Source of the DNA: a virus
Taxonomy: Duplodnaviria; Caudoviricetes
Reading direction: 5' to 3' (one strand)
DNA: 54,273 nucleotides
Virus record (IMG/VR): IMGVR_UViG_3300043431_000269
Coordinates: 1-54,273 of that record
Position numbers and translations under genes: made by a program. Positions within the stretch are counted from its first letter, which is position 1; every line of letters starts with the position of its first letter. The notes beneath the pieces are model-generated. The model searched no databases and had not been told where the DNA came from. It worked only from the letters and a program-made list of their open reading frames with translations. Below are positions 572-32,607 of the stretch, one piece after another.

Positions 572-767
572 CATAGCCATCGAGCGAACGATGTTCGAGG
601 ACTCGATCTGGAGCTACTACCAGAACCTCAAACTGAACGGTTGGTCTGACCCAGCAGAAGGCGACAACAAACGGGGGTGCCTGTTTTGGCGTGACGAGAA
701 CGGGCAGTACGGCGTGAAATCGATCGAGGCCGCCTGGTCGGGTTGGCAAATGAGGGCGCGATTTTGA
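564..767 (+). CDS. hypothetical protein inserted between terS and terL
   Basis: 67-aa ORF with GGGGAG RBS overlapping both neighbours; R..FE...Y....AAW.GWQ.RA pattern common in small phage proteins. Confidence 0.6.
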   Translation: MFDIAIERTMFEDSIWSYYQNLKLNGWSDPAEGDNKRGCLFWRDENGQYGVKSIEAAWSGWQMRARF

Positions 768-2968
768 ACACCGATCAAGGCTACGCCGTCGCGCTCGGCG
801 ATATGTGCATGGGGTACAGCGCGCTGAAGCCGCCGAAGCGCGTGACGGTCGCGCAAGGCGCTGCCGAGTGCCTGGTCATCAAGCAGCCCGGCGCGGCGGG
901 CGGGCCGTGGAGCGCCGCCGAGACGCCCTACATGGTCGAGCCGATGAACATGCTCGCCAGCCGCAAGCATGAGGCGCTGGTGTTCTCCGGCCCGGCCCGC
1001 ACTGGAAAGACGCAGGGCCTGTTGCTCGGGTGGCTCGGCCATGCGGTAGTGAACGACCCCGGCGACATGCTGTTCGTGCAAATGACGAAGGAGAAGGCCC
1101 GCGAGTTCTCGAAGACGGACGTGGATCGAGCGATCCGCAATAGCCCGGCTATCTACGCGATGAAAGGGACGCGGGCTATCGACAGCAACACGTTCGACTC
1201 GATGTTCCGGCACGGCATGTTCCTGCGCATTGCCTGGCCCACGGTGTCGAACGTCTCAGGCTCGACCTATCGCTACGTGGCAATCACCGATCTCGACCGG
1301 ATGGAGAACGCCGAGAACGTCGATGGGGAAGGGCCGCTTTTCGACCTGGCGCGCAAACGGACGACCACGTTTCTCTCGCGCGGCATGTGCCTGGCCGAGT
1401 CCTCGCCTGGCATCGAGATCGAGATTCCAAACTGGCGCCCGGCCACGCCCCATGAAGCGCCCCCGGTGAAGGGTATCCTCGGGCTCTACAACAGAAGCGA
1501 CAGACGGCGCTGGTACTGGCAATGCCCGGACTGCCGCGACGGGTTCGAAGCGGCGCCTGGGCTTGGGCTGTTCAACCTGCCCAGCGAGCCTGAGCTGATC
1601 GAGGCCGTGCGCAACATGTCGATCCCGAAGATGGCCGCCGAGTGGGGTAGCCGGATCGTCTGCCCGCACTGCGGAAGCCTGATCGACGCGAAGTGGAAGA
1701 CGAACCTCAACCGGCGAGGCGAATGGCTGGCCGAGGGCCAGACCATCGACTCGGACTGGACCAAGCACGGAGAACCAGCGCCAGCGACGATCGCCGGCTA
1801 TTGGCTTGGCGGCGTTGCGGCGACCTACCAGAAGTGGTCGAGCCTGATCGAGCGGTATCTCCAGGGTCTGCGCGACTACTCGCTGACGGGCTCCGAAGAA
1901 ACGCTCAAAGTGACGACGAACACCGACCAGGGCATGCCGTACATCGCGCGCCACCTCGTCGAGTCGCAGTCGCGCGCTGGCGCGCCGGAGGACCGCGCGA
2001 ACGCGACGCTCCAGAGGTATGTCGTGCCGGCCGAGGCGCGCTGCGTGATCGTCGCGGTTGACGTGCAGGGCGGCGTCACCTCGCGCTTCATCGTTCAGGT
2101 CCACGCCGTTGGCGCGCACATGGAGCAGTGGCTGATAGATCGCTTCGAGATCAAGCGGTCAATGCGCGAGGGCATGGGCTCCGACTTCGCGCCGATCGAC
2201 CCGGCCTCCTACCCGGAGGATTGGGACGTGCTGACCGAAAAGCTGCTGCGCGCGACCTGGCGCACGCCGGACGAAGGCCGTGAGATCAAGCTCAAGATGC
2301 TGGTCGTTGACTCTGGCGGCGAAGATGGCGTCACCGCGAACGCTTACCAGTGGTTCCGGCGCGTGCGCGCGGAGAAGCTGGGCGATCGGATCATGCTCTA
2401 CAAGGGCGCGAGCACGCCGCGCGCCCCGATCCTGAAGCTCTCGATGGTCGGCAAGCGCGGCGCGAAGGACCGGCCGGACGTGCCGCTCTACGTCTGCAAC
2501 CCGAACCTGCTCACCGACGCCGTTGACGCCGGCCTGCGCCGGTCAACGCCTGGGCCGAACTACATCCACTTCCCGGCACCGAAGCACCCGACGCAGAACC
2601 CTGAAGGCTGGCTGCCGCAGTCCTTCTTCGATGAGCTGAAGGCCGAGGTGCGCCAGAAGAACGGGACTTGGGCACAGGTTCGCAAGCGCAACGAGTCGAT
2701 CGACCTGTGCCGCATGATCCGGGCGGCCATGCTGCGGCTGGGCCTGGACAAGATTAAGGACTGGTCAGTCGTGCCCGCCTGGCTGGCGCCGCTGCCGATC
2801 AACAGCGAGGTCATGGCTTCTGAAGACCGCCGCGAGATGAAGGCGAACGAGCGGGCCGAGCCCGCGCCGGCCTCGGCCGACGCTACCGTGGCCGAGCAGT
2901 CGGTGAGGATCGTGCCCGCGCGGGTGAAGCGCCAGCGTCGTTCGTCGGTGCCGGGCTTCTTGCGCTAA
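743..2968 (+). CDS. terL: terminase large subunit, lambda GpA family (true start may be TTG at 764)
   Basis: TPYMVEPM, Walker A GPARTGKT, CPDC/CPHC zinc pair, VAVDVQ and VDSGG nuclease motifs, RNESID near C-terminus. Confidence 0.95.
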   Translation: MANEGAILNTDQGYAVALGDMCMGYSALKPPKRVTVAQGAAECLVIKQPGAAGGPWSAAETPYMVEPMNMLASRKHEALVFSGPARTGKTQGLLLGWLGHAVVNDPGDMLFVQMTKEKAREFSKTDVDRAIRNSPAIYAMKGTRAIDSNTFDSMFRHGMFLRIAWPTVSNVSGSTYRYVAITDLDRMENAENVDGEGPLFDLARKRTTTFLSRGMCLAESSPGIEIEIPNWRPATPHEAPPVKGILGLYNRSDRRRWYWQCPDCRDGFEAAPGLGLFNLPSEPELIEAVRNMSIPKMAAEWGSRIVCPHCGSLIDAKWKTNLNRRGEWLAEGQTIDSDWTKHGEPAPATIAGYWLGGVAATYQKWSSLIERYLQGLRDYSLTGSEETLKVTTNTDQGMPYIARHLVESQSRAGAPEDRANATLQRYVVPAEARCVIVAVDVQGGVTSRFIVQVHAVGAHMEQWLIDRFEIKRSMREGMGSDFAPIDPASYPEDWDVLTEKLLRATWRTPDEGREIKLKMLVVDSGGEDGVTANAYQWFRRVRAEKLGDRIMLYKGASTPRAPILKLSMVGKRGAKDRPDVPLYVCNPNLLTDAVDAGLRRSTPGPNYIHFPAPKHPTQNPEGWLPQSFFDELKAEVRQKNGTWAQVRKRNESIDLCRMIRAAMLRLGLDKIKDWSVVPAWLAPLPINSEVMASEDRREMKANERAEPAPASADATVAEQSVRIVPARVKRQRRSSVPGFLR

Positions 2969-2988
2969 GTTAGCAAACGCGATATAAT
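2960..2988 (+). promoter_or_regulatory. sigma70 promoter driving the intergenic structured RNA
   Basis: TTGCGC (2960-2965), 17 nt, TATAAT (2983-2988); predicted +1 about 2995 is the first base of a 13-bp stem. Confidence 0.75.
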
Positions 2989-2994
2989 TTACTC

Positions 2995-3364
2995 GACACT
3001 GAAAACCGCCTCGGGTTAGCGCCGGGGCAGCGTTTCATGACTGGAATGGACCCCTCACTCAACAGCGAAAGACTGCTTCATGTCAGGGTTTTCAGTGTCA
3101 TCACGAGTGGCGATTGCCTAGACGAAACAGCCATATCTCCTTTAGGGCAGCCAAAGAGGTGTTTCGTTTTGGGAAAGGGCAGTCGTCACTCTTGATCGTG
3201 AATGCGAACCCGGGGCGCGCCGAATGCGCGCGTTGCTCCGCAGAGCATGTGTGGCGCCTGGCGGCCCGCTTGCACCGTACTGCATGACACCTCGGAAAGA
3301 CGAGGCCGTCTTCTAGGTGAATTTCACTCGAAATTCGACCTTCGTGCGCTGAATTTCGCACGAA
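2995..3364 (+). ncRNA. candidate structured non-coding RNA(s), multi-hairpin array
   Basis: GACACTGAAAACC/GGTTTTCAGTGTC (2995-3007/3087-3099); GAGTGGCGATTGCC/GGCAGTCGTCACTC with G-U pairs (3105-3118/3178-3191); further hairpins at 3234-3247, 3290-3305, 3319-3336 and 3341-3364; no convincing ORF. Confidence 0.6.
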
Positions 3365-3403
3365 ATTGTGCCGCAGTGTCCCAATCGCCAAACGCGCGAT
3401 GAT
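3361..3403 (+). promoter_or_regulatory. putative activator-dependent late promoter, copy 1
   Basis: CGAAATTGTGCCGCAG, 21 nt, GATGAT; same architecture at 9171, 10854 and 14786. Confidence 0.7.
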
Positions 3404-3412
3404 CGGGCCACT

Positions 3413-3634
3413 ATGGCAGTCACCCAAACCGACATCGACTCACTGAACGCCGCGATCGCAAGCGGCGCCCGTTCCGTGACCATTGGCGGCCAGACCGTCA
3501 TCTACAACACCACGGAATCGCTGATCAAGGCCCGGGACGACGCGCAGCGCCAGCTCAACGCGCAAACCGCAGCCGAATCGGGCGCCCGCCGCCGCAAGCA
3601 GTTCTATCTCATTCACGGCGGCCGGGGATACTAA
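3413..3634 (+). CDS. head-tail joining protein (gpW-like)
   Basis: MAVTQTDIDSLNAAIASGARSVTIGGQTVIY motif; position between terL and portal. Confidence 0.85.
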   Translation: MAVTQTDIDSLNAAIASGARSVTIGGQTVIYNTTESLIKARDDAQRQLNAQTAAESGARRRKQFYLIHGGRGY

Positions 3635-5629
3635 ATGGCGACACGCGGCAGACCGCCTAAGCAGGAAACGCTGGTCGCGCGCGCGGCCGTCGAGATGTTC
3701 CGGGAAGCCCAGGGCGTGCTCCCCGGGCAAAGCGGCAAGCAGGTGCTGCAGCCGCGCGCCAAGTACGACGCGGCCGGGCAGGGCCGGCGCCTTGCCGGAT
3801 GGAACCCTCCGTCGAGCGGCCCGAACCGGGCCATCGAGGGGCTGCAGACAATCCGCAACCGCTCGCGCGATTCTTCGCGCAACGACTGGTCGGGCTCGTC
3901 GGCGACGCAGAAGTGGGTCACGAACTTGATCGGTATCGGCATCACGCCGCGCTTCAAGCGCATCACCAGCCCGGAGCGCAAGAGCAAGCTGCAGGACCTG
4001 TGGGCCGATTTCGTGCAGGTCTGCGATGCGGACTGCGTGCTCAACTACTACGGGCTCCAGACCCTTGGCACGCGCTCGCTGCTGGATGCTGGCGAGGTGT
4101 TCGTGCGGCGCCGAGCGCGCTTTGAGAGCGACGGCCTGCCGGTCCCTCTGCAGTACCAAATCATTGAAGCCGAGATGGTCCCGATGTTGGACGCGGACAC
4201 CTACAAGGGTCTGCCGGCCGGCAACAAGATTCGCTCAGGTATCGAGCTGGACAAACGCGGGCGCCGGGTGGCGTATTGGGTCCACAAGGAGCACCCGAAC
4301 GAGAAGTCGATGGGCTACATCGACCCTGGCGCGCTGGTGCGCGTGCTGGCCGGCGACATGATTCACGTCTTCGAGCCGTTGCGCGCCGGGCAGTTGCGCG
4401 GCGTGTCGATGCTCGCGCCGATCCTCACGCGCTTGAGGAACATCGAGAACTACGACGACGCGACGCTGACGCGACAGCAGCTCGCCAACCTGATCGTGGC
4501 CTTCATCACGCGCAAGCTGCCGCCGCTGACTGGCGACGAGGACATCAACGGCATGACCGGCGAGCCGTATCAGGTCGATGAAACCGGCACGCCGCTGGCC
4601 GCGCTGCAGCCTGGTCTGGTGCAAGAACTCGATGACGGCCAAGAGGTGACGTGGAGCAACCCGCCCGAGGCCGGGACCAACTACAGCGACTACATGCGGA
4701 CTCAGCATATGGGCACCGCTGCTGGGACCGGACTGCCCTATGAGCTGTTCTCGGGCGACATCAAGGAGGTGAGCGACCGCACCCTGCGGATCATCATCAA
4801 CGACTTCCGGCGCCATGCCGAGCAGCGCCAGTGGCAGATCATCATTCCGCAGTTCTGCCAGCGGACCCTGGAGTGGTTCGTCGATGCCGCCGTGCTCGCG
4901 GGTAAGGTGTCCGTCGCAGAAGCCGACCTGGCGCGCCGTGTCGAGTGGGCTACCCACGGCTGGGCTCACATTCACCCGGTTCAAGACCCGCAGGGCAAGC
5001 AGCTTGAGGTGGATGCAGGCTTCCGCAGCCGGTCGAGCGTGATCGCGGATCGCGGTGACGACCCTGACGAAGTGGATGCCGAGCGCGCAGCGGACAAGAA
5101 GCGCGCCGAAGACCTCGGCCTCAGTGTCGATCCTGCGGCTGCCGCTGCCTCTGCGACGGCGGACCAACAGCAGCAGTCTGACCAGCAGCAGCAACAGCAG
5201 CAGCAGGATCAACAAGTCCGGGCCTTGGCGATCCTGGCCTCGCTACAGGAGCAAATGCGCGGCCAGCAGGAGGCGATGCAAGCCGCGATGGCCGCGCTGA
5301 ACCAGAAGCCTGCTGACCCGGTGCAGTTGACCATCAACAACCACATCCCGCAGACGGTCGTGGAGAACTCGGTCCAACCGAGCGCCGTGACCGTGCAGAA
5401 CAACATCGAGCCGACGCCACTCAACGTCTCGGTGCAGAACAACGTCGAGCCCACGCCGCTCAACGTCTCGGTGGCCGCGCCGACCGTGGAAGTTCACAAC
5501 GACGTGCAACCCGCCGAGGTCAACGTGAACATCCCGGCGCGCAAGACCGACACGACCATCGTGCGCGATTCGAGCGGGAACATCGTGCGCGCAACTCAGA
5601 TCGAAACCGACGCCGACCCGGCGCAATAA
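3635..5629 (+). CDS. portal protein, lambda family, with polyQ/beta-repeat C-terminal extension
   Basis: YDAAGQGRR, IRSGIELDKRGRRVAYWV, RAGQLRGVSMLAP, GLPYELFSGD, GFRSRSSVI motifs of lambda gpB-type portals. Confidence 0.93.
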   Translation: MATRGRPPKQETLVARAAVEMFREAQGVLPGQSGKQVLQPRAKYDAAGQGRRLAGWNPPSSGPNRAIEGLQTIRNRSRDSSRNDWSGSSATQKWVTNLIGIGITPRFKRITSPERKSKLQDLWADFVQVCDADCVLNYYGLQTLGTRSLLDAGEVFVRRRARFESDGLPVPLQYQIIEAEMVPMLDADTYKGLPAGNKIRSGIELDKRGRRVAYWVHKEHPNEKSMGYIDPGALVRVLAGDMIHVFEPLRAGQLRGVSMLAPILTRLRNIENYDDATLTRQQLANLIVAFITRKLPPLTGDEDINGMTGEPYQVDETGTPLAALQPGLVQELDDGQEVTWSNPPEAGTNYSDYMRTQHMGTAAGTGLPYELFSGDIKEVSDRTLRIIINDFRRHAEQRQWQIIIPQFCQRTLEWFVDAAVLAGKVSVAEADLARRVEWATHGWAHIHPVQDPQGKQLEVDAGFRSRSSVIADRGDDPDEVDAERAADKKRAEDLGLSVDPAAAAASATADQQQQSDQQQQQQQQDQQVRALAILASLQEQMRGQQEAMQAAMAALNQKPADPVQLTINNHIPQTVVENSVQPSAVTVQNNIEPTPLNVSVQNNVEPTPLNVSVAAPTVEVHNDVQPAEVNVNIPARKTDTTIVRDSSGNIVRATQIETDADPAQ

Positions 5630-5638
5630 GGAGAAACC

Positions 5639-6010
5639 ATGTCCGTCAACTACACGACCGCAGTCAAGAACGCGCGCCTGGGCGCCGTCGTCACTGCCAT
5701 CGGCACAGCCGGCGTGCTGGAAATCGGCACCACCGGCATGGGAACCGTGCTGGCGACGATTCCGCTTGCCAACCCGGCCGGGACCACTTCCGGCGGGGTG
5801 CTGACCTTCTCGGGCTTCCCGAGCAGCGACACGTCGGCCGACAACACCGGCACTGCAGCGGCCGCGCGCATTCGCACTGCCTCGGGCGGCACCGACATCC
5901 TGACCGGCCTGACCGTGGGCACGTCGGGCACCGATGTGATCCTCGACAGCGTGAGCATCACTGCCGGCCAGACCGTGACGCTCACCAGCGCCACCATCAC
6001 GCACGCCTGA
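5639..6010 (+). CDS. small virion structural/fibre-adaptor-like protein (paralog of 26176-26568)
   Basis: AGGAG RBS; Thr/Gly-rich beta protein; aligns by eye with the 26176-26568 product. Confidence 0.65.
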   Translation: MSVNYTTAVKNARLGAVVTAIGTAGVLEIGTTGMGTVLATIPLANPAGTTSGGVLTFSGFPSSDTSADNTGTAAAARIRTASGGTDILTGLTVGTSGTDVILDSVSITAGQTVTLTSATITHA

Positions 6011-6012
6011 TC

Positions 6013-6444
6013 ATGACCGGGCTGCGCATGGCGTTCCAGCATTCGGGCCGTGTCGGTCCGATGAAGTTGGTCGCGCCGGTTGCCGCGCTGCTCGACCACG
6101 GACCATACAGCCACACCGAGATTCAGCTCCCTGACGGAACGTGCTGCAGCTCCGTCCCTGGTAGCGGGGTAGTCATGCGCAAGTTGCACCTCGACCCAGC
6201 GCATTTCGACTTCCTGCCGTTGTCCAATGGGCTGCTTCAGCAGGTCGTCAACTGGTACGAGGCCCACCAGGGTCATGCGTATGACTGGCGCGGGAACCTG
6301 CGATTCCTGGCTCCGCTCGTGCGCGAGTCGAGCGCGCGCTGGTTCTGCTCGGAATCGAATCTCGCTGCGTTGGGCGTTCCGCAGCCGTGGCGCCACGGTC
6401 CGACCGGCGCCTATCACTTGATCAAATGGAGGTACGTCGCATGA
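6013..6444 (+). CDS. permuted papain-like (NlpC/P60, YiiX-like) amidase/peptidase
   Basis: YSHTEI (catalytic His) ... YDW ... WFCSE (catalytic Cys) in permuted order. Confidence 0.7.
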   Translation: MTGLRMAFQHSGRVGPMKLVAPVAALLDHGPYSHTEIQLPDGTCCSSVPGSGVVMRKLHLDPAHFDFLPLSNGLLQQVVNWYEAHQGHAYDWRGNLRFLAPLVRESSARWFCSESNLAALGVPQPWRHGPTGAYHLIKWRYVA

Positions 6445-6842
6445 CGCTACTCGCTGAAATCCAGGCGAAGTGCTCGCCGGAACTGATTGCCTCGAAGGAG
6501 CACGGTGCCATCGCTGCGCTGGTGTCCGAAGGGCGCACGAAAATCGTAGAGCGCATCGGCGGCATTGGCACGGTGCTGCGGCATCTTGGCCCGGTCGATG
6601 GTCCGGCGCTGCTCGATGCTCTTGACGCGCTGCGCACCACGGTGCCGGCGATCCGTTGGGGTTGGGTGCTGCTGGATCGCGGGCAACTCGATTTCGGTAG
6701 CCCGGTTGTGCGCCAGTTGATCGACCAGTTGGCAATCGACGGCGTGATGACCTCGGCCCATGCCGAGCTTCTGAAGGGCCTGGCCGTCGAGCCTGACCCG
6801 GTTAGCGTGCAGGAAGTCGCGTCGGCGATGGAGGGTCTGTGA
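6441..6842 (+). CDS. hypothetical protein
   Basis: GGAGG RBS; ATGA overlap with upstream stop. Confidence 0.7.
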   Translation: MTLLAEIQAKCSPELIASKEHGAIAALVSEGRTKIVERIGGIGTVLRHLGPVDGPALLDALDALRTTVPAIRWGWVLLDRGQLDFGSPVVRQLIDQLAIDGVMTSAHAELLKGLAVEPDPVSVQEVASAMEGL

Positions 6843-15732: not shown

Positions 15733-18700
15733 ATGGCGACCAGCAACACCCGCGACGTGAAGATGACCCTGAGCGTCGAAACGCTCGGGGCTGACGAGAT
15801 CAAGAAGCTGCAAGACAGCGTGGCGCGACTAGCGCGAGAGGGTGGCGACGCCGCGCCAGAGTTCCAGCGGCTCGCCGACGAGATCGGGCGGCTCGGCGAA
15901 CAGGCCAACGCTCTGCGCACGTTCGAAGAACTGTCGGCGACGATGGGCGAGCTGGCCGGCAAGCAGCAGCAGGCCACGCAGCGTGTCGATGAACTCCGGG
16001 TGGCGCTTGACCTGGCGCGCGAGGCCACCACGCGCGATGCGGAGGCCCAGCGCGCGGCCGCCGCCGAAGTGGACAACGCGAAGAAGGTCAAACAAGACCT
16101 GGCCGCCGCACTGCGCAAGCTCAACACCGAGTACGACCTGGCGGGCAAGAAGACGAGAGAATACAAGGCGGCGCTGAACGACCTGATCGACAAGCAGGCG
16201 ACGAATGCGAAGTCGCTGGTTGATCTGGTCTCGGCCCGGCGCAACGCGAATGCCGCCCTGGCCGAATCGGCGGGTGCGGAGCAACGTCTGGAGGCGCAGT
16301 ACAACAAGTCGGCCAAGTCGCTCGCCCAGGTATCCACGGCGCTGGCCGACCAGCAGCGCGCGCTCGATCTCCAAAGCGCCGCAGCGGCGCAACTCGGTGT
16401 TTCGACCGAGAACATGGCTACGGCCCAGGCCGAGCTGATCAAGGCGCTCAACGAGACCGGCGCGAGCGCCACGCGAGCGGCCGGCGCGCTCGACGGGGTT
16501 GGCTTCCAGCGCCAGATTGACGAGGCCAAGCGCTTGCGTGAGTCCGCTGAGTACGTCCAGTTTTGGGAGCAGGCGCTGCGCGACGCCGACCTGGCCGCGA
16601 AAGAGATGGCGGACCAGCAGGCGTTCCAGCGGCAGATCGATGAAGCGCAGCGACTGCGCGAGGCAGCCGACTACGTGCAGTTTTGGGAGCAGGCGCTGCG
16701 CGAGGCGGACCTTGCTGCCAAAGAGCTGGCCGACCAAAAGGCATTCACGCAGCAACTGGCCGAGGCCGAGCGTCTGCGCACGGCAGCCGAGTACGTGCAG
16801 TTTTGGGAGCAGGCGCTGCGCGAGGCGAACCTGGCCTCAGAAGCTGCAGCGGAATCGGCCAAGCGCCTGGGAAATGCGTTCGATACGGTTGGCGCTCGCA
16901 GCGCCAGCGGCCTGCGGGCAGAGATCGATCAGGTCAGGGCCGCGATGCAGACCCTCGGCACGCAGGCCGGGCTCACCGGGGGCGAGCTGGCAAGCGCGAT
17001 GGCTGCCGGCAACGCGCGCATCGCCGAGTTGGAGCGGCAGCTCCGCGAGGCCACCGGGCAGCTCACGCTTGCGGACAAGGCCGCCAAGCTGTTCTCGAAC
17101 TCGATGGGCCAGATTGCGGCAGGCAACCTCATTGCTGACGGCATCGGCTACTTGGTCGAGAAGGTCAAGGAGATGGGCCGCGAGTTTGTTGCGGTCAACG
17201 TGCAAGCTGACTCAATGCGCAGGGCGCTCAACGCCGTCTATAAGGACACCGAGATCACGGCCCAGCAGATCGACTTTCTGCGCAAGACGGCGACCACGGC
17301 CGGCGTGTCGATCTCGGGCATCACCGACGACTTCGTGAAGTTCGCAGCGGCCACGCGCTCGTCGAATATTGACCTCAAGACCACCGACGAGGTGTTCCGG
17401 TCCGTGACGCTGGCCGCCTCGTCGCTCGGGCTCGGCGCCGAGAAGACCAGCCTTGCGCTCAATGCCCTCGGCCAGATCGCTTCAAAGGGCGTCGTGTCGA
17501 TGGAAGAACTGCGGCAGCAGCTCGGCGATGCCGTGCCTGGCGCGCTGTCGCTCACGGCAAAGGGTCTCGGGATCACCGACGCCGAGCTGGTCAAGTTGGT
17601 CGAGAGCGGCAAGCTCGCCGCGCGCGACTTCTTCCCGGCGTTCGCCAAGGGCCTGTCCACGCTGCAGGGGGAGACAGACGGCCTGCGGCAGACGTGGGAG
17701 CGGTTCAAGAACGTCCTGACCATCACGGCGACCAACGCGGGCGACGCCGGCTGGGTTCAGATTCTGACGCTTGGCCTGAAGGGGCTCGGCGTCGTCGTGA
17801 GTGTCGTCACCCTGGGCTTCAGCCAAATGTACGAGGGGGTGATGACGATCACGCGCGGAGTGATCGTCTTCTACGAGACGCTGGCAGGGCGCGGCGCGCA
17901 GGCGCTTGAATTCTTCAACGAGGAAGTCGCCAAGACGAACTCCCGCCTGGAGGAACAGCGGCTGGCAATCGCCTACATGCTGAACCCGACGGAGGAACTG
18001 CGAGCCAAGCTCACTACTGCCGGATTGGCGAACAGGGATTTCAGCTCGTCGGCGCTGGCTACGTCCGACGCGCTGAAGCTCAACACCACGGCGCTGCAGG
18101 AGAGCGCCCAGGCCGCGCTCGGCGTGCAGGCCGGGCAGTCGGCGGCGGCAAAGGCGCTGCAGATCACTGGCGACGCGAGCCGCGAGGCCGGCTCGAAGTG
18201 GGTGCAGTTGAACGTCGAGATGCTGAAGCTCCGCGACACCCAGGAGCAGGCCGTCGCGGTCTCCGAGAAGGCAAGGACAGCGGCCGAGCACGAGGCCGAG
18301 GCCGTGTCTCGGTTGGGTGCTCTGCGCGGCGACTCGGTGGCAAAGCTCGAATCCGAGGCCAGGGCAGCGACCATCAATGAGTCGGCGCTGGCCGCCGTGG
18401 CGAAGGCACGCGAGGCCGAGGCCGCCGTCATCACCGTGCAGCTCAACGAGATGGTGAAGCTGGCGCTGGCCCAGGACGGATCGCTTGAGAAGCGCCGACA
18501 GGAGATCGAGTCCATCAAGAAGAAGGCCGACACGTCGCAGGAAGAAGCCGCCGCTGCACGCAGCGCCGCCGAGGGTGCGCGCATCGAGCGCCAGCAGCGC
18601 GAGCTGCTGGTGCAGACCTACCGCGACAACTCGGGTGCGGTCGAGCAACTGCGCCGGGCGATGGAGCTGGCAAACGAGGCCGCGAATCTCACGGTGGCGA

Positions 18701-32320: not shown

Positions 32321-32607
32321 GGTTTACCTTTCGGTTTTGGGGGAAGAATTCGGTCGATGTCGGCGAACGTGGCGACGACATGCACCTCGAAGCCGGCCGC
32401 GCGCAGCCGCTCGTGCTCGCGCGCCTGGTGGGGCTCTGGCACCTCGCCGGGCCGCTTGCACTCGACCAGCATGTGCCGGCCTGGCAGCAGGATCAGGTCA
32501 TCGTTGGCGGCGCGCCGGCCGATCCACTTCAGGCGCCGATAGTCGCCGCCGAGTTCCTTGGCTCGGCGGTGCAGGTACGCCTCGATCTGGCTCTCTCGGA
32601 TCGTCAT
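32317..32607 (-). CDS. VRR-NUC nuclease
   Basis: RESQIE...DDLILL...VECKRPG...Q.REHERLR..GFEVHVV. Confidence 0.88.
   Translation of the reverse strand: MTIRESQIEAYLHRRAKELGGDYRRLKWIGRRAANDDLILLPGRHMLVECKRPGEVPEPHQAREHERLRAAGFEVHVVATFADIDRILPPKPKGKP

Follow-up and report, generated by a model that had tools for sequence, protein, structure and literature searches.

The window analysed here, the complete 54,273-bp record of a Caudoviricetes virus from a collection of uncultured viruses (IMG/VR record IMGVR_UViG_3300043431_000269), carries a 445-nucleotide (nt) gap at 2969-3413 between its large terminase gene (terL) and the open reading frame (ORF) that occupies the position of lambda gene W, and this gap holds three RNA modules on the plus strand, 3' of a promoter-like site. 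With a probability of roughly 55%, we read the terL-to-W gap as a slot for a promoter-driven small-RNA island, filled in this genome by three structured modules in place of transfer RNA (tRNA) genes, which would make it a polycistronic cassette. Judged by the covariation of its helices, module 1 belongs to a large phage RNA family of 59 distinct members, and module 3, a conserved core, belongs by the same kind of comparison to a second phage RNA family of 14 distinct sequences. The kind of element is already known, namely phage non-coding RNAs in tRNA islands; the two families are absent from Rfam 15, and they and their modular grammar appear new. An original prediction, made from the letters of the window, had proposed a promoter-driven cassette of several roughly tRNA-sized non-coding RNA units at this place, and the idea is supported in that two of the three units fall in covarying families with a G-U bias to the plus strand, tRNA genes occupy the same slot in relatives, and in other phages genuine tRNAs take the place of the units or lie directly against them. 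The parts are as follows.

Promoter-like site: 2960-2988, plus strand; -35 element TTGCGC at 2960-2965, 17-nt spacer, -10 element TATAAT at 2983-2988.

Module 1: 2995-3099, plus strand; four-helix cloverleaf-like domain of ~105 nt, delimited by family model R2 and covariation.

Module 2: 3100-3196, plus strand; imperfect hairpin of 97 nt (the rod), delimited by fold energy, abutting module 1 and ending 3-5 nt before the core.

Module 3: 3197-3310, plus strand; conserved core of ~115 nt, delimited by conservation, covariation and model R1.

Several lines of evidence indicate that module 1 is a member of a structured RNA family. Its helices in the window are these.

P1: 2995-3007 with 3087-3099, plus strand; perfect 13-bp inverted repeat.

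P2: 3008-3014 with 3022-3028, plus strand; hairpin with the conserved loop GUUAGCG at 3015-3021.

P3: ~3031-3048, plus strand; variable arm.

P4: 3071-3073 with 3082-3084, plus strand; 3 bp closing the conserved 8-nt loop UGCUUCAU at 3074-3081.

The perfect stem opening at 2995 and the inner hairpin GCCUCGG/CCGGGGC had both been named in the original prediction and are present in the sequence; the GAAA-loop hairpin that was placed in the same domain is not a conserved element, and the model has the 3-bp helix P4 instead. The lead to the family was L024, a locus that encodes a terminase relative and in which the same hairpin loop stands on a different stem right after its own promoter. A 14-base word taken from the P2 hairpin matched at least 119 viral stretches, which with the window and L024 gave 121 loci to examine; among the matches listed, a second conserved box lies within 140 nt in 60 of the 121 loci, and 57 of these are unique. 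Members share one layout: the closing helix P1, free in sequence; P2, whose loop is GUUAGCG; an arm that varies; a P4 of 3 bp with loop UGCUUYAU; and, after two nucleotides, the 3' strand of P1. In a test of P1 that is free of any alignment, an uninterrupted stem of at least 6 bp forms in 49 of 55 unique members, as compared with 22% of mismatched partners, and 28 different 6-mers stand beside the P1 junction. Model R2 was built from the 49 members with a clear P1, the six without it being dropped. In the R2 alignment of 59 distinct sequences, 95.5% of 928 pair cells are paired (27-48% when the partners are slid), 12 of 16 pairs show compensatory changes with a total of 188 double-change cells, and none of 500 shuffles reaches any of the five measures. 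All seven modelled P1 pairs covary. P4, the third helix of the model, is paired in 100% of cells with a middle pair that is AU in 43 sequences, GC in 14 and CG in 2, and the GAC/GUC of the window is a compensatory change relative to the CAC/GUG of most members.

The window, which was in the training set, scores 48.4 bits with R2. Independent of training is a member that R2 identified in the same gap of the terminase relative L026, at 46.6 bits and with both loops intact, which had not been selected by the word; the model also identified a trained member in the gap of L024 and a weak one in that of L014 (22.4 bits), whose loop keeps only UUAGC. Every part that defines the family can be located in the window: P2 with its loop core UUAGC (3008-3028; also kept in L026), the 3-bp P4 with loop UGCUUYAU followed by two nucleotides and the 3' strand of P1 (3071-3086), and a closing helix P1 of variable sequence, here 13 bp long. 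Members come from many contigs with G+C contents of 0.42-0.68. The order of helices is that of the tRNA cloverleaf, with different arm and loop sizes; because of those sizes, and because ARAGORN returned 0 genes in the window, module 1 was rejected as a tRNA or transfer-messenger RNA (tmRNA). In 3 of 60 loci a tRNA stands 9-13 nt after module 1. Two module 1 relatives, searched against cultured phages, gave no match.

The evidence for module 3 is of the same kind, in a smaller family. Its elements are listed here.

AUGC/GCAU helix: 3202-3205 with 3245-3248, plus strand; encloses the variable hairpin P3 of the core at 3209-3243.

P5 of the core: 3251-3258 with 3263-3269, plus strand; near-invariant hairpin with loop UGGC.

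P6 of the core: 3271-3274 with 3281-3284, plus strand; UGCA/UGCA in one subgroup, GACA/UGUC in the other.

Terminal hairpin: 3290-3294 with 3301-3305, plus strand; loop GAAAGA.

The terminal hairpin CCUCG-GAAAGA-CGAGG was found at 3290-3305 as described. The core is thermodynamically ordinary (z-score 0.00 for 3197-3310) and is defined by conservation and covariation. A blastn search with the gap against cultured phages matched only Janthinobacterium phage Donnerlittchen (two records), over window positions 3201-3278 at 80.8% identity and directly after that phage's tRNA-Met, which itself lies 3' of the terminase gene; against plasmids there was no match. Identity of the core to matching stretches in other phage contigs is about 81-83%. 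Exact words led to 10 viral loci, looser word scans to L104 and L133, and a metagenome scan to L143, L146 and L148; the other matches of the looser scans are mostly chance matches in coding DNA, with L126 a doubtful member. The resulting family has 14 distinct sequences, including the window, in two subgroups. In the eight sequences of the window form, the core is preceded by a rod in six and by a rod plus a tRNA-like unit in L133, where that unit, with a T-arm and CCA, lies directly 5' of the core; L148 is without a rod. In the remaining six distinct sequences a tRNA-Met ends exactly at the first box. Homology among unrelated core contigs is limited to about 115-130 nt, and the neighbourhoods are themselves unrelated (an Erf-like gene, a CI-like repressor, terL with tRNA-Met).

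Of 363 pair cells of the core across the 14 sequences, 90.9% are standard pairs (28-50% with slid partners). Compensatory changes occur in 9 of 26 pairs, with 30 double-change cells, a result that 0 of 500 shuffles reach. These changes fall in P3, P6 and the terminal hairpin. The invariant hairpin has two variants only, both compatible with the fold: U-G to C-G in L133, and changed loop bases in L104. A block of about 28 nt is nearly invariant. With R1, the window core scores 88.8 bits (the window was in the training set), and each member locus contains exactly one copy; positions 3197-3310 carry the first box AUGCRRA, the variable hairpin, the ~28-nt block, P6 and the terminal hairpin by which members are recognised. 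R1 found no core in the 80 terminase relatives described below or in 59 loci of the module 1 family, and module 1 and the core occur together in the window only, among the records examined. Nor did R1 find a core in 151 bacterial genomes sampled from one arbitrarily chosen order, from which absence is not implied. A 19-base core word, searched in the genomes of 185,579 species, one each, gave 8 matches that are all chance, again without implying absence. Two further, weak R1 matches in the window, one at 16648-16732 (E 0.031) and the other at 32379-32473 (E 0.6), are attributed to chance, and a tmRNA-like reading of the start of the core was dropped, as neither ARAGORN nor Rfam returned anything for it.

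Matches to other known RNAs occur near some of the cores. L004 (7535-7611, minus strand) and L133 (986-1060, plus strand) match the Rfam family Burkholderiales-2 RNA at 69.2 and 53.9 bits, respectively (gathering score 67.9); these are different contigs, and in each the match is on the strand opposite to the core, some 0.4-0.6 kb upstream of it. In L143 a match to sRNA-Xcc1 (3843-3929, minus strand; 66.8 bits, above the gathering score) lies on the strand of the core, about 2.4 kb downstream.

Homologues were thus collected for both families, and the covariation that the original prediction had looked to is seen in them, in 12 of 16 pairs of module 1 and 9 of 26 of the core. The alignments also favour the plus strand: the core has 18 G-U to 6 A-C pairs, and module 1 has 42 to 10. 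At the level of folding energy, the hairpin stretch 2995-3364 does better than shuffled sequence on the plus strand (z -4.21; 0 of 100 shuffles as good), and the minus strand is nearly as good relative to its shuffles (z -3.60). When 2995-3364 is folded piecewise, the rod is the sole part that is clearly strand-specific.

The rod folds at -42.7 kcal/mol on the plus strand (z -5.35) versus -30.8 kcal/mol on the minus strand (z -3.28), a loss of about 12 kcal/mol that fits the description of a long rod at 3100-3196 with G-U pairs on the plus strand only. A search for sequence homologues of the rod found none. Its position is what recurs: a tRNA-Met, a tRNA-like element or a rod unrelated in sequence occupies it in 13 of 14 members of the core family. 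The rods of several members have a base in which CCAUCA pairs with UGAUGG, of which the window has a weaker version only. Rods of the CCAUCA/UGAUGG type were also seen in the gap of L013, a terminase relative, and in L212, where the rod bears module 1 at its tip.

In order to place the cassette in its genomic setting, we compared the slot across 80 loci encoding terminase relatives at 30-76% identity. Both flanking genes were found in 29 of the 80, and there the terL-to-W gap measures 48-1875 nt; because of this spread, terL and the W-position gene do not normally abut in this phage group, contrary to what had been assumed. Removal of 4 near-duplicate loci left 25 gaps for comparison. In the window, the predicted transcription start, at about 2995, is the first base of P1. 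The promoter had been called near-consensus, and this is right for the perfect TATAAT and the 17-nt spacer and wrong for the -35, where TTGCGC matches 3 of 6 positions; a looser scoring gives 9 of 12. Of the 20 relatives with gaps of at least 190 nt, 8 have, immediately 3' of the terL stop codon, a promoter-like site of at least 9/12 whose spacer is like that of the window. In L019 a promoter called by the tool (10/12) and a called terminator just before the next gene bracket the cargo. Genes for tRNA lie inside the gap on the plus strand in 5 of the 19 relatives scanned (Met in two, Glu in one, Leu in one and a set of three in one). Because the length varies, a homologous promoter often stands at the start and tRNA genes are found in 5 of 19, the gap is, as far as sequence comparison goes, a promoter-driven island slot for tRNAs and other small RNAs. 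Within 3230-3760 of L019, beside its tRNA-Met, at least two more T-arm-like stretches can be picked out by eye that ARAGORN leaves uncalled; they may be degenerate or tRNA-like units.

The genes on either side of the slot are the following.

terL: 743-2968, plus strand; lambda-type large terminase gene, left flank, outside the cassette; Pfam GpA_ATPase 5.7e-69 and GpA_nuclease 8.4e-63.

W-position ORF: 3413-3634, plus strand; 73 codons, at the position of lambda gene W, right flank; 45-73% identity in 29 relatives.

Portal gene: 3635-5629, plus strand; right flank, after the W-position ORF; Pfam Phage_portal_2 (lambda family) 5.1e-104.

The W-position ORF has no Pfam match at E 0.01, and 'gpW' is therefore a name by position only. 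The flanks have a G+C content of about 0.65-0.70, as against 0.53-0.60 in the gap.

From this comparative anatomy we infer transcription of the cassette, cleavage at the rod and action in trans. Host RNA polymerase would start at about 2995, which would lock the 5' end of the transcript in P1, and module 1 would fold into a cloverleaf-shaped domain of ~105 nt that presents two conserved loops. The rod would serve as a processing spacer in the place held by a tRNA or tRNA-like unit in other phages, to be cut here by a double-strand-specific ribonuclease (RNase) and in tRNA-bearing phages by the enzymes that mature tRNAs. Such processing would free the ~115-nt core as a separate small RNA ending in the GAAAGA hairpin. 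In trans, the most likely action of the freed RNAs would be to bind, through their invariant loops, a factor of the host or of the phage.

A number of observations weigh against a cassette of this kind. The -35 of the window site at 2960-2988 is poor, and a stricter promoter scan leaves the site uncalled. A terminator scan found no terminator-like site between the cassette and the W-position ORF, so that the RNA could be a mere leader of the head-gene transcript. Where the core follows tRNA-Met, a GC hairpin with a short U tract separates it from the next gene, and the terminator tool leaves this uncalled. In the module 1 family, 28 of 57 members have a ribosome-binding site and an ORF within 160 nt downstream, which suits a cis-acting leader better than a free RNA. 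Members of this family were picked by the exact 14-base P2 word, and their alignment is fitted to the model and so favours the structure of the model. The core family is small, with its 14 distinct sequences split into two subgroups; the invariance of the core block is partly a selection effect, since members were found through words inside it; and P5 and the AUGC/GCAU helix, which never vary, draw no support from covariation. As to expression, none of the listed sequencing runs that contain the DNA of 2600-3800 is an RNA run, and two metatranscriptome runs from the study behind one of these DNA runs gave no contigs on 2600-3800; neither result has weight either way.

The main alternative, which we consider unlikely but by no means negligible, is that of a cis-acting leader, in which module 1 would modify the polymerase (processive antitermination) or protect the 5' end and transcription would then run through the hairpin region into the W-position ORF, the portal gene and the head genes. 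The coincidence of the predicted start with the first base of P1 speaks for it, in the window and in the strong-promoter members of the family (11 of 52, with a promoter-like site of at least 9/12 within 25 nt upstream), as do the ORFs that follow module 1, the closest of which leave no room for a terminator, and, in the window, the want of a terminator-like site ahead of the W-position ORF. However, the genes downstream of module 1 belong to unrelated families (phrog_13900, phrog_1123, phrog_2776) or to none, a strong promoter directly upstream is lacking in 41 of 52 members, and several members sit inside longer non-coding arrays. The GC hairpin and U tract after the tRNA-Met-type core also suggest the end of a transcript, uncalled as they are, and the cargo of the relative L019 is closed by its called terminator before the next gene.

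A compact arrangement of the leader type was seen in seven loci (L168, L170, L173, L190, L205, L234 and L266), in which module 1 is preceded by a near-consensus promoter that overlaps a palindrome (TTGACA-ATGTCAA type) and is followed by a ~140-codon gene. Copies of the ~140-codon gene after module 1 in L190, L164 and L216 match phrog_13900.

Beyond the two families, the loci have further elements in common. A GC-rich 5-bp hairpin with a loop containing GAAAG is met repeatedly, like punctuation: it closes the core in 5 of 8 window-type loci, lies upstream of the rod in L104, flanks module 1 in L178, L188, L221, L258 and L212, and is also present in the gaps of the relatives L019, L028 and L031, as compared with 1 match in unrelated loci totalling 298 kb. 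Several such units, the core among them, are strung over 0.7-1 kb free of long ORFs in L143 and L011. We would tentatively entertain, as an improbable extension, that the cassette is a small instance of widespread modular phage RNA arrays. Their parts would be cloverleaf-like domains, rods that share a base, GAAAGA punctuation hairpins, tRNA-like units and the core, and the arrays would be cut by host enzymes of tRNA and ribosomal RNA maturation into tRNA-shaped RNAs that act on translation or tRNA surveillance or form RNA-only particles. If that were true, such RNAs could be, for example, decoys against tRNA-targeting defences, or RNA-only particles like GOLLD and ROOL.

The stretches in L143 (~5790-6560, minus strand) and L011 (~2990-3960) look like long multi-unit RNA arrays, with rods on CCAUCA/UGAUGG bases, GAAAGA hairpins and the core; that of L011 holds a tRNA-like unit, and that of L143 ends at a called terminator. 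A second type of unit, which may be a sister of the core family, has a GAAUGCG junction like the core and then YAGGCUGAURCGC, and follows module 1 in L178, L188, L221 and L258 and a second rod in L143 and L146. In L196 (3327-3442, minus strand) there is an Rfam tRNA match of 33.7 bits whose D region carries a 51-nt insertion; in sequence type, its acceptor stem agrees with the rod bases and with the tRNA-like units seen in the arrays.

It is quite improbable, in our estimate, that the cassette is the remnant of a decaying tRNA island without present function. Such a remnant would account for the want of an ARAGORN tRNA in the window where relatives have tRNAs in the slot, and for a rod without a sequence homologue. 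Yet modules 1 and 3 retain all the boxes and helices that define their families, and the spread of the module 1 family over many contigs and the G+C range given above is not the pattern of decay.

We think it still less probable that the conserved stretches are DNA-level sites (operators, recombination or packaging sites) with hairpins as by-products of palindromes, a reading that does describe one part of the region. Immediately after the core stand these elements.

Two palindrome copies, TGAATTTC-n-CGAAATT: 3318-3335 and 3350-3367, alike on both strands; a direct repeat of inverted repeats.

Box GAAATTGTGCCGCAG: 3362-3376, without strand; ~51 nt upstream of the W-position ORF.

The palindrome copies are spaced 32 nt apart, and the hairpins of 3318-3367 fold equally well on the two strands (z -4.53 and -5.12). 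A box matching GAAATTGTGCCGCAG stands in 15 of 25 relatives, 50-73 nt ahead of where the next gene starts; relatives whose gaps are only 72-85 nt are among them. Positions 3318-3376 are thus probably DNA-level sites of the downstream gene, to judge from symmetry and conservation, and could bind a regulator or serve the head genes as a late promoter element; what had been taken as two more hairpins at the end of the array are these palindrome copies, and we set the end of the cassette at ~3310 for this reason. That the two strands of module 1 give folds of similar quality in the window (z -3.27 on the plus and -3.95 on the minus strand) and that the ~28-nt core block is nearly invariant would also suit DNA sites. 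Within the modules, however, compensatory changes preserve the helices as the sequences change, G-U exceeds A-C in both families, and the rod is 12 kcal/mol weaker on the minus strand. The modules moreover have strand and slot in common with tRNA genes, and, since no true copy of the word turned up in the 185,579 genomes scanned, the core does not copy a host attachment site of any of these.

That the gap codes for one or more small proteins (from a 66-codon ORF at 3202-3402, or as a peptide from the conserved ATG of the core) we regard as barely credible: one frame is stop-free across the aligned core in 12 of 14 sequences, the block contains an ATG and the single L133 change is synonymous in that frame, but the variable columns after the conserved ATG are spread 5/4/4 over codon positions 1/2/3 with no third-position excess, variable sites give radical residue changes, members differ by 1- and 2-nt indels upstream of the invariant block, neither sequence nor length is conserved past about 15 codons, and none of the four ORFs of the gap has a Pfam match.

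The original prediction had been unable to assign an RNA family, and the covariance models of Rfam 15 likewise gave no match in the gap to E 10, including those for C4 antisense RNA, GOLLD, ROOL, tmRNA, Y RNA, riboswitches and small ribozymes; the sole match from this search lay outside the gap (proV, 2518-2601, E 4.4). Rfam 15 returned nothing relevant for the whole window, no match at module 1 in 8 module 1 loci and none at the core in 8 core loci, and with the module 1 element of L215 alone it gave only a match on the wrong strand (E 4.6). Literature searches found no description of the motifs, a weak negative, as the supplement of a paper reporting 224 motifs (PMC5737381) may include motifs that did not enter Rfam.

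By analogy, the RNAs closest in kind to the cassette are GOLLD and ROOL. Both are large, ornate structured RNAs of phages and prophages, of unknown function and often found near tRNA islands. In GOLLD the 3' part is conserved and the 5' part less so; its linker sometimes carries tRNAs, and a Met-tRNA precedes one of the copies that have been studied. The cassette resembles GOLLD in its variable 5' part, its middle position filled by a rod, a tRNA-like unit or tRNA-Met, and its conserved 3' core. It is likewise phage-borne and beside tRNA genes, which are found in the slot of 5 of 19 relatives and abut the core as tRNA-Met in six sequences. In contrast to GOLLD and ROOL, it lacks a conserved multistem 3' domain and any Rfam match to E 10, its RNA amounts to ~320 nt in all as opposed to roughly 580 and over 800 nt, and the core is a chain of four simple hairpins instead of multistem junctions with pseudoknots.

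Three further likenesses serve as leads only. Phage tRNA clusters can contain co-transcribed small stable RNAs, and RNAs also derive from the 3' trailers of tRNAs; the units are made as one transcript and separated by tRNA-processing enzymes. The core has the position of a 3' trailer in the six distinct sequences where it directly follows the CCA of tRNA-Met. It differs from trailer RNAs in being far more conserved than a trailer and in also occurring after rods that are not tRNA-like, and the window itself has no tRNA by ARAGORN. Hairpins processed by RNase III stand between genes of phage early transcripts, and the rod is comparable as a long imperfect hairpin between units of one predicted transcript; unlike those, several rods of the family have the recurring CCAUCA/UGAUGG base, which is weaker in the window. 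Lambdoid phages have promoter-proximal antitermination RNAs and nut-type sites. Module 1 is like the former in beginning at the predicted transcript start, and the GC-stem hairpin with its purine-rich GAAAGA loop recalls small protein-binding hairpins of the latter type; on the other side, there is no sequence or family match to either, the loop of the hairpin has 6 nt and module 1 has four helices.

YrlA Y RNAs are reported to carry a tRNA-mimicking module within a non-coding RNA, to occur in phages too, and to have a 5' motif of GNCGAA, up to one more base, and then G. A module of tRNA-like layout inside a non-coding RNA is a likeness to the YrlA RNAs so described. A search for the Ro60/TROVE gene gave 0 matches in the whole 54-kb record, the control genomes being matched. 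We rejected the Y RNA reading, as there is no Ro60 gene, the first box of the core has U where the reported motif needs G, and there is no Rfam match.

Two phage RNA families with good comparative support, one of them with at least 59 distinct members, are thus uncatalogued in Rfam 15, and phage annotation now leaves gaps such as this one blank. Because the modules are short and have invariant loops, tests of partners, of cleavage and with reporters would be simple once a host or surrogate is chosen. The slot exchanges tRNAs, tRNA-like units and the RNAs described here for one another, and so offers a natural experiment on the purpose of phage tRNA islands.

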